Source: an uncultured Pseudomonadota bacterium (GTDB lineage: Bacteria; Pseudomonadota; Gammaproteobacteria; Xanthomonadales; Ahniellaceae). Taken from it: DNA of 43,340 nucleotides. The stretch covers positions 1-43,340 of the forward strand of contig CALKUS010000135.1 of the NCBI GenBank assembly GCA_937996755.1, in the 5' to 3' direction. Made by a program: the position numbers and the translations under genes. Below are positions 1,874 to 28,668 of this stretch, one piece after another; position 1 is the first letter of the stretch; each line of letters starts with the position of its first letter. The notes under the pieces are model-generated. The model worked only from the letters and a program-made list of their open reading frames with translations, did no database searches and was not told the origin of the DNA.

Positions 1874-2431
1874 ATGAACGATGAAGAGCCCGAAGACGAA
1901 GCCCCGCCCGAACGCCTGCCGCGCGACCAGCGACCGAGCCGCAGCTCGAAGCGGCGCGACGCGCTGGCGGTGTTCGACCTGGCCGAGGCGCTCGTGGCGA
2001 TGACCGAGGCGCAGCTCGCGCGCGTCGGGCTGCCCGACGAACTCGCGGCGCTCGTCGCCGAGAGCCGGCGCATCACGCAACACATCGCTCGCAAGCGGCA
2101 GCTGCAGTTCCTCGCGAAGCACCTGCGGCGCAACGAGGACGTCCTTCCCGCGATCCGTGCCGTGCTCGACCACGACCGGGACGAGAAACGCGCCGATGCC
2201 GCGAAGCTGCACCGCATCGAGCACTGGCGCGACCGCCTGATCGACGGCGGCGACGAAGCGCTCGGCGAGCTGCTCGCGGAGCACCCCGGCGCGGACCGGC
2301 AGCACCTGCGGCAGCTCGCGCGCAACGCGAAGGCCGAGCGCGTGGCGAACAAGCCGCCGGCGTCGGCGCGCGAGCTGTTCAGGGTGCTGCGAGCGTTGCT
2401 CGAGGCGCCGGAAATGGGAAATGGGCAATAG
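1874..2431 (+). CDS. yjgA: Ribosome-associated protein YjgA/DarP (DUF615)
   Basis: The C-terminal 150 aa match E. coli YjgA (xRQLQxIGKxLR, WRDRLID, NKPPxSAR). The track ORF starts at 1856 and overlaps the pmbA start by 1 nt. The second ATG at 1874 (MNDEEPEDE) is more plausible. Confidence 0.8.
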   Translation: MNDEEPEDEAPPERLPRDQRPSRSSKRRDALAVFDLAEALVAMTEAQLARVGLPDELAALVAESRRITQHIARKRQLQFLAKHLRRNEDVLPAIRAVLDHDRDEKRADAAKLHRIEHWRDRLIDGGDEALGELLAEHPGADRQHLRQLARNAKAERVANKPPASARELFRVLRALLEAPEMGNGQ

Positions 2432-2490
2432 GAAATCGGAAGAGCGAAGCGCGCTTCGCCGATTTCCGATTTCCGATTTCCGATTTCCGC
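2410..2490. repeat. Family B heptad-repeat hairpin (GGAAATG/GGAAATC units and their complement GATTTCC x4 around the palindrome GCGAAGCGCGCTTCGC). It is the likely bidirectional terminator between yjgA (+) and tldD (-).
   Basis: Direct reading: 2 x GGAAATGGG, then GGAAATCGGAA, a central palindrome, then 4 x GATTTCC. It sits between two convergent stop codons. It resembles the locus at 23419-23562. Confidence 0.55.
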
Positions 2491-2499
2491 GGGCGCAGT

Positions 2500-19714: not shown

Positions 19715-19785
19715 TGTTTCGGAGCGGGATTCGAACCCGCCACCTCAAGGGTTGCCTTGAGCTCTGACCGACTGAGCTATCCGAT
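19715..19785 (-). pseudogene. tRNA-like remnant X1. It has tRNA D-arm and T-arm sequence, but its anticodon arm is replaced by a 7-bp stem with a 4-nt loop (CTCAAGG-CAAC-CCTTGAG). The acceptor stem pairs at only 5 of 7 positions, and the 5' end abuts the CCA of tRNA-Asp.
   Basis: Reverse complement: GCCATCGGATAGCTCAGTCGGTCAGAGCTCAAGGCAACCCTTGAGGTGGCGGGTTCGAATCCCGCTCCGAAAC. There is no 7-nt anticodon loop and no encoded CCA. Confidence 0.4.
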
Positions 19786-19859
19786 GGCGGCCCCGGCCGG
19801 ACTCGAACCGGCGACTTCCGGTTCGACAAACCGGCGTTCTCACCTCTGAACTACGGGGC
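19784..19859 (-). tRNA. tRNA-Asp (anticodon GTC), CCA encoded
   Basis: Hand-folded: GGCCCCG-TA-GTTC-AGAGGTGA-GAAC-G-CCGGT-TTGTCGA-ACCGG-AAGTC-GCCGG-TTCGAGT-CCGGC-CGGGGCC-G-CCA. The acceptor pairs 7/7, there is a GG in the D-loop, and the discriminator is G73 as expected for Asp. Confidence 0.8.
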
Positions 19860-20290
19860 CCGTGCCTGCACGCTCGACGCCGCGGATCGGTACGCGGTGG
19901 CCCATCGGGCTCCGCGCCAGGCGAACCGGGATCGCTCCCGGAGCTCGCTATCGCTGTTCCGCAGCGTCGCTACGCACATCATGTCGACGCCGCTCGCGCG
20001 AGCTCGCGCGTTGCGTTCGTCGGAATTGGTCGGGCCCATCCCACGCCCGCGCGCGGGAGCGGAAGGCCGGCGTCGCGTCGCGCGCAGGCGCGTCGCTTCG
20101 ATGCGACGTCGTCGACGCCGCAAGGAACACGACGCCACAGGCGCGCGGCATCGACGCCGGGCACTCCACCCGCAGGCGCAACGAGCGCCGTGCCGCATCG
20201 ATCCGTTGCGAGCGATCGACCGCACCGGGATGGAGCCCGGTGGAGCGCGTTGCCGCGCTCCGGTGTTGCAAGGACAGCAGCCGTTTCAGG

Positions 20291-20364
20291 GCTGTGGAGC
20301 GGGAGTTGAACCCGCGACCGTCGAGATATCATCTCGATGCTCTACCCGTCTGAGCTATCCATTG
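20291..20364 (-). pseudogene. tRNA-like remnant X2. It has a canonical cloverleaf body with an Ile-type anticodon GAT, but the acceptor stem is mispaired at positions 2-3, its 5' end overlaps the CCA of tRNA-Arg by 2 nt, and it has no CCA.
   Basis: Reverse complement: CAATGGA-TA-GCTC-AGACGGGTA-GAGC-A-TCGAG-ATGATAT-CTCGA-CGGTC-GCGGG-TTCAACT-CCCGC-TCCACAG-C. It is homologous in position and sequence to X1. Confidence 0.4.
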
Positions 20365-20439
20365 GCTTCCCCGGCAGGATTTGAACCCACGACCTCCGGC
20401 TTCGTAGACCGGTGCTCTACCTGGCTGAGCTACGGGGAA
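20363..20439 (-). tRNA. tRNA-Arg (anticodon ACG), CCA encoded, U1-A72 first pair
   Basis: Hand-folded: TTCCCCG-TA-GCTC-AGCCAGGTA-GAGC-A-CCGGT-CTACGAA-GCCGG-AGGTC-GTGGG-TTCAAAT-CCTGC-CGGGGAA-G-CCA. The acceptor pairs 7/7, and the anticodon arm resembles E. coli Arg-ACG. The T-stem has two wobble pairs. Confidence 0.7.
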
Positions 20440-21793: not shown

Positions 21794-22851
21794 CGCGAAA
21801 CCGCGAGCGACTTCGCGGCGCGCGGCTGCGCGACCATCGCGAGCAGGCGCTCGAGCTCGCGCCACGCGTCGACGCCCTGCCCGGCGCGCCCCTTGCCGGC
21901 GCGCTCGACGTGCGCAGCCTGCGCGAGCATGGCTTCCCAGTAGTTCGCGCGCGCGCGCTTCATCGCGGCGCGGAAGATGCCCAGGCGCGCCTGCGGCCAG
22001 ACGCGCTCGTTGCGCATCGCGGTGTCGACGTCGGCGCCGCGCTCCATCGCGACCGCGAGGCGCAGCGCGACCTGCAGCTGCATCGTGAACCAACCGAGCA
22101 GCGCGGGCACGGCGTCGCCTTCCGCCTTCAGCGAGGCGGCGATGCGCAACGCGCGCGCGCTGTCGCCGAGCAGCGCGGCGTCGACCAGCTGGAACACGTC
22201 GAAGCGCGCGCTGTCCGCCACGTACTGCTCGAGCTGCGCCGCGTCGACGCGACGTGGTGCTGCCGGCGTCGCGCCCGCGAGCAGCGCGAGCTTGTCCACT
22301 TCCTGCGCGCCCGCGAGCAGGTTGCCCTCGATGCGCTCGACCAGGAGCTCGACGGCGTCCGGACCGAGCTCGACGCCGCGCTTGTTCGCGCGCGCCGCGA
22401 TCCACGCGTGCAGCTCGTTGCCCTTCAGCGGCCAGAAGATCGCGACGGTGCCGATCTCGTCGATCGCCGCGCTCCATGCCGCGTCGTGCTGTTTGCTCCA
22501 CGTCGTCGCGGTGACGAGCAGAATGGTGTCGGGCGGCGGCGACTCGCAGTAGCTGGCGATCGCCTCGCCGCCTTCCTTGCCGGGCTTGCCGGTGGGCACG
22601 CGCAGGTCGATCAGGCGGCGCGTCGCGAAGAGCGACATGGCCGCGCCGGTGTTCGCCAGCTCGTACCACTCGAAACCGGAGTCGCTCGACTCGAGCACGA
22701 CACGCTCGCTGTAGCCCTGCGCGCGCGCCTTCGCGCGCAGCGCATCGGCCGCTTCGAGCACGAGCAGGTGCTCGTCGCCCGCGAGCAGGTAGGCGGGCTT
22801 CAAGTCCCCGCTGGCGAGGTGCCTCTCGAATTGGGCGGCGTTGAGGGCCAT
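21790..22851 (-). CDS. holA: DNA polymerase III delta subunit HolA
   Basis: 353 aa, with the conserved N-terminus (LKPAYLLAGDEHLL) and the order lptE-holA-nadD as in E. coli. Confidence 0.85.
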   Translation of the reverse strand: MALNAAQFERHLASGDLKPAYLLAGDEHLLVLEAADALRAKARAQGYSERVVLESSDSGFEWYELANTGAAMSLFATRRLIDLRVPTGKPGKEGGEAIASYCESPPPDTILLVTATTWSKQHDAAWSAAIDEIGTVAIFWPLKGNELHAWIAARANKRGVELGPDAVELLVERIEGNLLAGAQEVDKLALLAGATPAAPRRVDAAQLEQYVADSARFDVFQLVDAALLGDSARALRIAASLKAEGDAVPALLGWFTMQLQVALRLAVAMERGADVDTAMRNERVWPQARLGIFRAAMKRARANYWEAMLAQAAHVERAGKGRAGQGVDAWRELERLLAMVAQPRAAKSLAVSR

Positions 22852-22854
22852 CGT

Positions 22855-22950
22855 CGTCAGGGGAGAGCGGGGAGCGGCAAGAGCAGCCTGCGGGCACCTT
22901 GCAGGTTGCGCGCTGTTGCCGCTCCCCGCTCCCCGCTCACCGCTTTCCGC
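22855..22950. repeat. Family C hairpin repeat (stem GCGGGGAGCGGCAAGAGCAG / CTGTTGCCGCTCCCCGC) in the lptE-holA intergenic spacer
   Basis: Direct reading. A second copy is at 27660-27760. It also carries short CCGCTC(A/C)CC direct repeats. Confidence 0.55.
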
Positions 22951-23508
22951 TCACCGTGTAGCCGCCTCGATGCGGCGCAGCACCTGCTGCACCATCTCGC
23001 GCTGCAGCTCCTTGCGGATGAGCGCTTCCTCGGTCGCGGCGCCGAGCGCCTGCGTTTCGTCGAAGCTGTACTCCCGCTCGAGCTCGATCGGGCCGCGCGG
23101 CACGATCGTCGCGCCGTTCGCGCCGGCAACCTCGAGCTCCACCCTGTAGCGCACGGCGTACTCCTGCACGCGCGCCGTGCCGCCGACCGTGAGCACTTCG
23201 GTCTTGAGCTCGTTCACCGGGATGCGCACGACGCCGGCCCCGTCCGTGCCCGTGGCGACCACGGTCGCGCCGGCGCGCTCGAGCGCGGCCTCGAGGTCGC
23301 GCGCGAGCGGGCTGAACGGATCGGAGATCTCCAGCGACACGCGTTGCAGCGACGGCGGCAGCGCGACTTCGTCGCGCAGCTGGAAGCCGCAACTGGCCAA
23401 GACGAAGCAAAGCGCCACGGAGAAAACGGAAATGGGAAATCGGAAACGGGAAATCGGGAAAGCCGCGGCTCTCCAGTCAGCGCATGCGGTCCGGTCGGAG
23501 CGGTCCAT
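22951..23508 (-). CDS. lptE: LPS-assembly lipoprotein LptE, with an unusual 40-residue signal peptide that contains a family B repeat arm
   Basis: 185 aa with a lipobox (VLASC, then GFQLRD) and an LptE-like body. Start ATG MDRSDRT has a GAGG-N9 Shine-Dalgarno sequence. Codons ~15-30 (AAFPISRFRFPISVFS) are encoded by the GGAAAT heptad repeat. Confidence 0.75.
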   Translation of the reverse strand: MDRSDRTACADWRAAAFPISRFRFPISVFSVALCFVLASCGFQLRDEVALPPSLQRVSLEISDPFSPLARDLEAALERAGATVVATGTDGAGVVRIPVNELKTEVLTVGGTARVQEYAVRYRVELEVAGANGATIVPRGPIELEREYSFDETQALGAATEEALIRKELQREMVQQVLRRIEAATR

Positions 23509-23562
23509 CACTTCATACCTCGTTTCGCTGTTCCGATTTCCCATTTCCGATTCCCGGTTTCC
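23419..23562. repeat. Family B heptad-repeat inverted repeat. An 18-bp perfect stem GGAAATGGGAAATCGGAA / TTCCGATTTCCCATTTCC sits within longer GGAAA(T/C)(G/C) heptad arrays. It spans the leuS-lptE junction and the first ~30 codons of lptE.
   Basis: Direct reading of both strands. The loop (~70 nt) contains the lptE Shine-Dalgarno sequence and start codon. It is related to the locus at 2410-2490. Confidence 0.55.
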
Positions 23563-23579
23563 GGCCGCGCGAAGCGCGG

Positions 23580-28668
<5,089 letters not shown>

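Follow-up and report, generated by a model that had tools for sequence, protein, structure and literature searches.

The window examined here, the whole stretch of 43,340 nucleotides (nt) of contig CALKUS010000135.1 from an uncultured member of the Xanthomonadales, has a G+C content of 70% and carries on its minus strand the gene run leuS, lptE, holA and nadD, as identified with Pfam. The YjgA protein of the window shows 89% identity to that of a Xanthomonadales metagenome-assembled genome, and the next matches come from Tahibacter and Rhodanobacteraceae, a result that assigns the host to the Xanthomonadales. The subject of this work is the leuS-lptE junction; lptE is essential in those model organisms where it has been studied. 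At this junction two inverted arrays of seven-nucleotide units (heptads) form a hairpin, named here element C, which encloses the Shine-Dalgarno (SD) sequence and the start codon of lptE (Table 1).

The hairpin at the leuS-lptE junction

The original prediction for this locus described an 18-bp perfect inverted repeat lying inside longer heptad arrays and enclosing the SD sequence and ATG of lptE. This was confirmed: GGAAATGGGAAATCGGAA is found once on the plus strand at 23428 (23428-23445) and its reverse complement once at 23531 (23531-23548). The longer arms (23427-23463 and 23527-23563) have 37 nt each, are 84% complementary and stand 63 nt apart; the arm at 23527-23563 (arm 1) begins 17 nt past the leuS stop. 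Tandem Repeats Finder (TRF) recognized arrays of period 7/14 in both arms, at 23417-23461 and 23531-23563, with 2.9-4.7 copies, and the in-phase heptads of the arms score 5-7 of 7 against GGAAATS. Moreover, the 12-mer GGAAATSGGAAA, allowing at most one mismatch, has 13 matches in the window against 0.05 expected from shuffles, and all 13 are confined to 2410-2488 and 23428-23555. Independent assemblies of at least seven other metagenomic samples contain the same arrangement, so the hairpin is not an assembly artefact.

Read from ATG 23508, the distal arm (arm 2) codes for part of LptE, as had been claimed, and the protein has a predicted odd signal peptide of 40 residues, with the lipobox LASC containing Cys40. 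The amino-terminal (n-) region of this peptide has a net charge of +2 and the hydrophobic (h-) region covers residues 24-37; arm 2 supplies R21, R23 and the onset of the h-region. Among 107 LptE homologues the lipobox cysteine has a median position of 19, and in 93% of them it lies at 14-27. No stop codon occurs in any of the six frames of the arms and, 7 and 3 being coprime, each frame of an arm codes for the same cyclic heptapeptide (PISDFRF-like). As a consequence of both properties, arrays of this kind can be absorbed into the ends of open reading frames (ORFs). The overlap TGATG of the mini-ORF with the lptE ATG and the adjoining GTG (23516-23506, minus strand) are kept in every strain seen.

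Table 1. Features of the leuS-lptE junction and the other heptad hairpins of the window
Feature	Position	Strand	Remarks
leuS stop TGA	23582-23580	-	last codon of leuS
Short GC hairpin CCGCGC-TTC-GCGCGG	23565..23579	-	directly 3' of the leuS stop; part of the lineage-specific 187-nt segment
Arm 1 (G-rich on the mRNA strand)	23527..23563	-	GGAAACC GGGAATC GGAAATG GGAAATC GGAACAG; intergenic
Spacer (hairpin loop), 63 nt	23464..23526	-	core AGCGAAACG, SD, mini-ORF, ATG and lptE codons 2-15
lptE SD GAGG	23521-23518	-	in the spacer
Mini-ORF ATG-AAG-TGA (ATGAAGTGA)	23516-23508	-	three codons; overlaps the lptE ATG as TGATG
In-frame GTG	23511	-	one codon ahead of the lptE ATG
lptE start ATG	23508-23506	-	in the spacer
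Arm 2 (C-rich on the mRNA strand)	23427..23463	-	coding, LptE residues 16-28 (AFPISRFRFPISV)
Remainder of the signal peptide	23389..23426	-	FSVALCFVLAS and lipobox Cys40; Cys codon TGC at 23391-23389
lptE	22951..23508	-	185 codons and stop; Pfam LptE domain at residues 54-180
Element A, GGAAAT(C/G) family	2409..2495	+	between convergent yjgA (darP) and tldD; -54.7 kcal/mol, z -5.4
Element B, CGGTGAG/CGGGGAG heptads	22856..22956	-	fills the lptE-holA spacer; lptE stop inside its first heptad
Element D, element-B family	27655..27757	+	downstream of an amidohydrolase gene; -71.6 kcal/mol, z -6.3

Comparison with relatives and among strains

The closest relatives without repeats (L131/L132 and L133) have about 94% nt identity to the window in lptE, and L131 also has 94% in holA-nadD. 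They read leuS...GGGGTGA-GCTG-ATG CGA ACC..., with a leuS-lptE gap of 4 nt, a signal peptide of 18-19 residues (MRTVARAA...) and a lptE-holA gap of 10 nt, and heptads are absent; the ancestral 19-residue signal peptide of LptE is MRTVARAAIVAASLALAAC. The relatives L007, L128 and L129, at 71-80% LptE identity, are also without repeats and have signal peptides of 18-19 residues. In addition, the 90%-identity cluster of LptE includes proteins with a nearly identical mature part but ordinary signal peptides. The FPISRF segment of the window protein is lineage-specific. A long N-terminus without repeats, which was looked for as a refutation, is not shown by the relatives.

In the BLAST alignments of the window with every repeat-free relative, homology ends at 23580 (the leuS stop) and restarts at 23391/2 (the Cys codon), and a second break extends from the lptE stop to the holA ATG. 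These breaks indicate that the window lineage exchanged 58 nt for 187 nt at the first site and 10 nt for 99 nt at the second. Judged from the alignments, both replacements are very recent, having occurred after about 6% nt divergence. The short GC hairpin that opens the longer segment was not found in L131, L133, L007, L128 or L129. A separate comparison of leuS (23580-25261) between the window and the strain represented by L005 gave about 24 gap columns, an indel polymorphism within leuS.

Heptads of other types were found at the same junction in two other relatives. In L127 (80% LptE identity) a GTCAAAG/CTTTGAC hairpin (L127:424-522; -41.5 kcal/mol, z = -6.4) is placed wholly upstream of a normal MKTIR... 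start. In L137 (52% LptE identity) an array of three to four CCGTCTC units lies in the 5' end of the called lptE, just before the h-region (L137:601-790), and the called "signal peptide" of 53 residues, which contains SVSRLPSPDSR, is an independent parallel to the arrangement in the window. The arrays of L127 and L137 mark the leuS-lptE junction as a recurrent site for heptad arrays.

Two further sequences were set aside. In L130 (1-260 and 880-1112) the mature lptE and element B are 99.7% identical in nt to the window and the 3' end of leuS is different, with an ATGA stop/start overlap and a normal 21-residue signal peptide, MKKLPRRLLLVSLAPLALSAC; the contig is covered 2.35x and departs from the window at both ends. 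L130/P0126, with an identical mature LptE, was not used as evidence, being possibly a chimera of the assembly or a recombinant. P0107, which looked like a repeat-bearing QueC, is a chimeric contig with the C-terminus of LptE and is not a repeat match.

Constraint on the signal-peptide extension is relaxed. Among eight haplotypes polymorphic sites number 6/40 in the signal peptide versus 2/145 in mature LptE (Fisher p = 0.0015), and arm 2 is polymorphic at codons 17, 21 and 22. In the comparison with L005 the 40 codons of the signal peptide differ at 6.7% of nt with no codon-position bias, and mature lptE differs at 1.8% of nt with 7/8 changes at third positions. The 185-codon frame is intact in all eight haplotypes, which show neither indels nor a change in the number of units.

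The explanation that we consider probable is that a heptad-repeat hairpin replaced the leuS-lptE junction together with the signal-peptide codons, leaving the start codon in its loop, and that it is tolerated as a passenger and is not a dedicated regulator. The ancestral order of leuS-TGA, 4 nt, ATG and an 18-codon signal peptide would have been swapped for the 187-nt segment, which brings first the GC hairpin and the G-rich arm, next the 63-nt spacer in which a new SD and a new ATG lie, then the C-rich arm, and last an h-region and lipobox that are also new. As the arms are stop-free, translation from the new ATG would cross the distal arm and yield the 40-residue lipoprotein signal peptide, whose Arg residues and onset of the hydrophobic core would come from the repeat. 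The lipobox suggests that signal peptidase II cuts before Cys40, and mature LptE would then be unaffected. Moreover, initiation at lptE would now be independent of the termination of leuS, and the first ribosome would have to unwind the stem.

Some observations do not sit easily with a mere passenger. Arm 1 and the SD region have a single change in 71 nt relative to L005, while arm 2 and the 3' part of the loop vary, and this conservation could reflect selection on something other than neutrality. The independent heptad arrays at the same junction in L127 and L137 could mean that a hairpin is selected for at this place. In addition, the 23-bp RNA duplex is a potential substrate of RNase III, which would make the structure functionally relevant. 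Finally, the segment with the 63-nt spacer and the new h-region may have been born in place, have come with the insertion of a dispersed element, or derive from recombination with another lineage.

Related hairpins, class and origin of the segment

A period-7 self-similarity scan detected the arms of three hairpins in the 43 kb, and reading the sequence added a fourth (element D), so that the window holds four hairpins of two heptad types, all of which fold strongly (z -3.6 to -6.3). In 3/4 elements the G-arm begins at a stop codon or closely behind it, and the C-arm precedes the next start. Element A, whose apex is the palindrome GCGAAGCGCGCTTCGC, touches a gene end only with its G-arm because it sits between convergent genes.

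The copy at 2410-2490 had been taken for a second member of the GGAAAT(C/G) family that forms the yjgA/tldD terminator and supplies the last codons of YjgA. The membership and the codons hold, as the G-arm of element A codes for the final codons of YjgA (PEMGNGQ*), whose stop TAG falls within a variant heptad; the label of terminator is unsupported because there is no U-tract. An intrinsic terminator was discarded at both GGAAAT(C/G) copies, neither of which shows a stem followed by a T-run, and no terminator-like site was found on either strand of 22700-23800 or 2200-2700. Tails coded by heptads were also seen in the YjgA homologues P0130 (EMGNRE), P0153 (GMGNGE) and P0162 (GLGNGE), with P0171 also listed; the YjgA relatives at 80-82% identity end without such a tail. 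The presence of these tails in several lineages indicates that the overlap of arrays with gene ends is common in Xanthomonadales.

One possible extension of the passenger account, compatible with it and held here only tentatively, is that the heptad hairpins are non-autonomous mobile or dispersed units, similar to MITEs (miniature inverted-repeat transposable elements) or repetitive extragenic palindromic (REP) sequences. A unit of the element-A type would have landed at the leuS-lptE junction and removed the old start and signal-peptide codons, and the central insert giving the new start would have been carried along or acquired later. The likeness between copies is in agreement with this. 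Elements B and D have a mean column identity of 82% over about 100 nt, loop flanks included (blastn 76.7%, E = 2e-12), and elements A and C have in common the non-heptad core GGAAATCGGAA(G/C)AGCGAA(G/A)CG. Element C aligns to A over both arms and the core, given one central insertion of about 56 nt that comprises the SD, the ATG and 14 codons. Moreover, lptE gained an element on either side in the course of about 6% nt divergence, and both occupy exactly the interval from a stop to a start.

Against such mobility, no target-site duplication or terminal signature was recognised and no transposase is linked to the elements in the window; all-or-none presence was seen at two junctions, and copies have non-heptad sequence in common. 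A metagenome scan with the shared core GGAAATCGGAASAGCGAARCG returned only the same locus in another strain and one chance match. At the lptE stop the ancestral CGCTGAGCG is similar to the heptad CGGTGAGCGG of element B, a likeness that would fit an origin in place through slippage. In the passages of the Xanthomonas study that treat the subject, the arrays have no association with mobile elements and most lie between the same genes in two species (PMC4692102).

No source for the 63-nt spacer was found in the window or in 130 loci, and its local alignment score with the 5' region of the repeat-free relatives was 13, versus 12.6 +/- 2.3 in shuffles. The mini-ORF ATGAAGTGA was considered as a remnant of an ancestral ATG-AAG start such as those of L007 and L127. 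This idea was abandoned: the closest repeat-free relatives start with ATG-CGA-ACC, and the loop has no significant similarity to the 5' region of the relatives.

By its sequence and layout the lptE feature can be classified as an inverted pair of heptameric simple-sequence repeats, a class already described in Xanthomonas. Heptad hairpins are frequent in the Xanthomonadales, where their typical place is the interval from the stop of one gene to the start of the next. According to the parts of the report of Rehm et al. (2015) that describe these GGGAATC/(GGGANTN)n repeats, there are 183-186 arrays per genome, about 40% of them in convergent pairs, and 70-75 cases of convergent pairs able to form stem-loops. 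The favoured site is at most 50 bp from ORF ends, stop-codon overlaps included, 7-11% overlap ORFs, close relatives differ in the length and sequence of the arrays, and the function is described there as not known (PMC4692102). Both arms of element C consist of tandem 7-nt units (at least two, at least 14 bp), and convergent pairs able to form a stem-loop occur in C and likewise in A, B and D. The position also agrees, with arm 1 close behind the leuS stop, A and B overlapping the yjgA and lptE stops, and arm 2 overlapping the 5' end of lptE, an overlap that corresponds to the 7-11% of arrays within ORFs.

The likeness to the Xanthomonas class, as far as those passages describe it, therefore comprises G-rich 7-nt units with an AAT core, convergent inverted pairs in the same order, the G-strand after the stop, the C-rich strand just ahead of the next ORF, a minority of overlaps with ORFs and variability between close relatives (PMC4692102). 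The units are not identical. Only one GGGAATC is present, at 23555-23549 (minus strand), and most units are GGAAAT(C/G) or GGAAAC(C/G), with A and not G at position 3; in another register they read GGGAAAT/CGGAAAT, a sequence variant and not the published GGGANTN consensus. Unlike the Xanthomonas repeats, the units of the window mostly have a G2 tract, and a second, unrelated family (CGGGGAG) coexists with them. The placement of arm 2 inside the coding sequence with the start codon in the loop is a configuration that does not figure in the passages describing the arrays (PMC4692102).

Heptanucleotide repeat families are also known as short tandemly repeated repetitive (STRR) sequences in Calothrix and Nostoc, and from Geobacter metallireducens and Beggiatoaceae (PMC2700814, PMC4679880, bioRxiv 10.1101/2022.06.06.494920). 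In the sections of these reports that concern them, they are dispersed tandem heptads, mostly intergenic near starts and stops and sometimes in genes, with post-transcriptional roles proposed and unproven; unlike those of the window, they have the units GGGGA(C/T)T, TAACTGA and GGACCGG, form mostly direct arrays and not inverted pairs, and belong to unrelated taxa. The cyanobacterial heptamer unit can also be of the CCCCAGT type.

It had been proposed that the hairpin could be a REP insertion tolerated by lptE. The tolerated insertion is in accordance with the relatives, which have no repeats and signal peptides of 18-19 residues, and the REP identity is rejected, as the arms are tandem heptamers with no single palindrome and no GTAG head. 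REP sequences and their associated tyrosine transposases (RAYTs) are similar in that they involve short dispersed intergenic palindromes of gammaproteobacteria, often within operons and forming RNA stem-loops; in contrast to the window elements, a REP consists of one imperfect palindrome, some 20-40 nt long, with a conserved GT(A/G)G head, and is extragenic by definition. None of the four elements is bounded by a GTAG/GTGG head, and no RAYT gene was seen in the 43-kb window. A further resemblance is to phase-variable contingency loci, with a repeat unit that is not a multiple of three within the 5' portion of an envelope-protein coding sequence, where slippage by one unit would shift the frame of lptE. 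In contrast to such loci the units at lptE are heterogeneous and their number did not vary in eight haplotypes; phase variation has also been argued against for the Xanthomonas arrays, in the passages concerned (PMC4692102).

Exact matches to the 19-mer GGAAATSGGAAATSGGAAA number more than 119 among those listed, in species-representative genomes of many phyla. These matches (L008-L126) include Verrucomicrobiota, Planctomycetota, Bacteroidota, Gemmatimonadota, Acidobacteriota, Chloroflexota, Hydrogenophilales and the Candidate Phyla Radiation (CPR), and no copy from the window organism is among the matches listed. The loci often adjoin arrays of other heptads, and a subset is paired with its own inverted array. 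In the 807 kb of these loci 163 perfect arrays have period 7, about 100 of them being the heptad searched for and about 63 other units, against 0-6 for each of the periods 5, 6 and 8-11. This over-representation of period 7 agrees with the published excess of heptameric repeats. The spread of GGAAATSGGAAATSGGAAA over many phyla means that the unit is not specific to the organism and says little about its origin.

RNA folding and the start of lptE

The RNA of the lptE junction folds into a stem of 23 bp plus 6 bp (-67.3 kcal/mol, z = -4.35), or -87.4 kcal/mol (z = -3.3) with its flanks. It had been suggested that this hairpin could sequester the ribosome-binding site, and the folding does not bear this out. 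The SD and the AUG lie in the 63-nt loop, unpaired by the stem. Partition-function folding, applied to the window and to five related junctions, gave a mean probability of being unpaired over positions -15 to +3 of lptE of 0.51 in the window, within the range of the relatives (0.01-0.59). At related junctions the values were 0.59, 0.25, 0.01 and 0.45, those of three relatives without a hairpin at the leuS-lptE junction being 0.59, 0.01 and 0.45. A control hairpin acting by sequestration was accordingly rejected. In this model the stem is predicted to display the ribosome-binding site in an open loop instead of hiding it. The leuS-lptE gap, 4 nt in the relatives, has become in the window a structured spacer of 71 nt with its own SD; judging by its size, the ancestral gap probably allowed translational coupling.

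Post-transcriptional control of LptE by other means appears rather unlikely. When ribosomes are absent, a duplex of at least 23 bp between the arms would span the 5' untranslated region (UTR) and codons 16-28; it might slow the first ribosome or be cut by RNase III, separating lptE from the leuS mRNA, and the output of LptE would thereby be set relative to the rest of the leuS-lptE-holA-nadD operon. The great stability of the stem would suit such a role. Moreover, the perfect 18-bp core is nearly kept in all strains (17 bp in L005, where 23445 differs), arm 1 and the SD region hardly vary, and unrelated hairpins recur at these junctions, the GTCAAAG hairpin of L127 at leuS-lptE and a palindrome of 16-17 bp in L007 at lptE-holA. 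Heptamer repeats near starts have been reported, in the part of the Nostoc study that deals with them, to affect the expression of recF and recO (bioRxiv 10.1101/2022.06.06.494920). On the other hand, the relatives do not have a more accessible SD and AUG, and several haplotypes have uncompensated substitutions in arm 2; no paired compensatory changes of the arms were seen among the strains, in which substitutions are too few. A dedicated regulatory role is disfavoured because very close relatives have a 4-nt junction without any hairpin and because similar hairpins stand at unrelated junctions, including one between convergent genes, which argues against a role specific to lptE.

A bolder combination of these ideas, to which we give little credit, is that heptad hairpins are actively spreading in this lineage, inserting exactly between stops and starts, rebuilding gene termini by virtue of being stop-free in every frame and, at lptE, donating an SD and ATG along with repeat-coded Arg and hydrophobic residues; the arrays of L127 and L137 would then point to selection for a structured, uncoupled junction that tunes the supply of LptE.

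The passenger account supposes that translation starts at ATG 23508, which is suggested by the GAGG placed 9 nt upstream, an ideal spacing. A start at the GTG at 23511 would give essentially the same product. It is improbable that LptE starts within or downstream of arm 2, with the hairpin as its 5' UTR. Between the ATG and Cys40 the only canonical in-frame starts are GTG31 (23418-23416) and TTG37, both too near Cys40; the near-cognate ATT19 could also be invoked, which would give MSRFRFPISVFSVALCFVLASC, a textbook lipoprotein signal peptide of 22 residues. An internal start would agree with the other elements, where the C-rich arm directly precedes the next start, as it likewise does in the Xanthomonas statistics, within the passages that present them (PMC4692102). 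Codons 1-22 change about as fast as non-coding DNA, with 4/6 changes non-synonymous, and by direct count the G+C content at third codon positions (GC3) of the extension is about 67%, compared with about 90% in the genes of the window. Nevertheless GTG31 has no SD ahead of it and leaves nine uncharged residues before the Cys with a hydrophobic core of about five residues, a peptide far shorter than those of all 107 homologues whose starts are credible (median 19). Initiation at ATT is very rare, and the nearest SD-like sequence to ATT19, GGAGAG, is 16 nt off. In addition, the eight haplotypes have kept the frame from ATG 23508 intact, despite the tendency of 7-nt arrays to slip and so shift the frame.

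It is very doubtful that arm 1 acts through a G-quadruplex (G4), as proposed for the Xanthomonas arrays, whose GGGAATC oligonucleotides form G4 in vitro according to the section devoted to them (PMC4692102): the six G-runs of arm 1 are spaced 3-5 nt apart, but they read GG, GG, GGG, GG, GGG and GG, with two G3 tracts instead of four or more, so that the idea fits the window repeats poorly and would allow at best a weak two-tetrad structure, in competition with the -67 kcal/mol hairpin on the same RNA, and the same architecture is seen in the second heptad family and in L127, whose GTCAAAG hairpin has no G-tracts.

A scan of the window with Rfam 15 matched only four tRNAs, and for 23300-23700 the best hits were plant microRNA hairpin models with at most 25 bits, compared with gathering thresholds of at least 168. 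The tRNAs lie at 19716-20439 (minus strand) as two abutting pairs, an unassignable tRNA-like sequence with tRNA-Asp and tRNA-Ile(gat) with tRNA-Arg(acg), with an overlap of 2 nt between the partners. The leading members of the two pairs reach only 42.7 and 47.8 bits with the Rfam tRNA model, which is low. A duplication of the block surrounding each pair is suggested by L005, which aligns to two places there.

The lptE hairpin is a curiosity within a described class and reveals no new mechanism. It is nevertheless a natural case, datable by close relatives, in which a repeat hairpin rewrote the 5' end of a gene essential in model organisms with the mature protein left untouched, and it illustrates the extent to which a lipoprotein signal peptide can be remodelled. 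For annotation, odd terminal peptides such as FPISRF, EMGNGQ and SRLPSPDSR in Xanthomonadales-like genomes flag heptad arrays, and the starts of such genes need care. Moreover, the all-or-none presence at 94% identity and the non-heptad cores shared between elements provide comparative material on how heptameric repeats arise and on whether they are functional.

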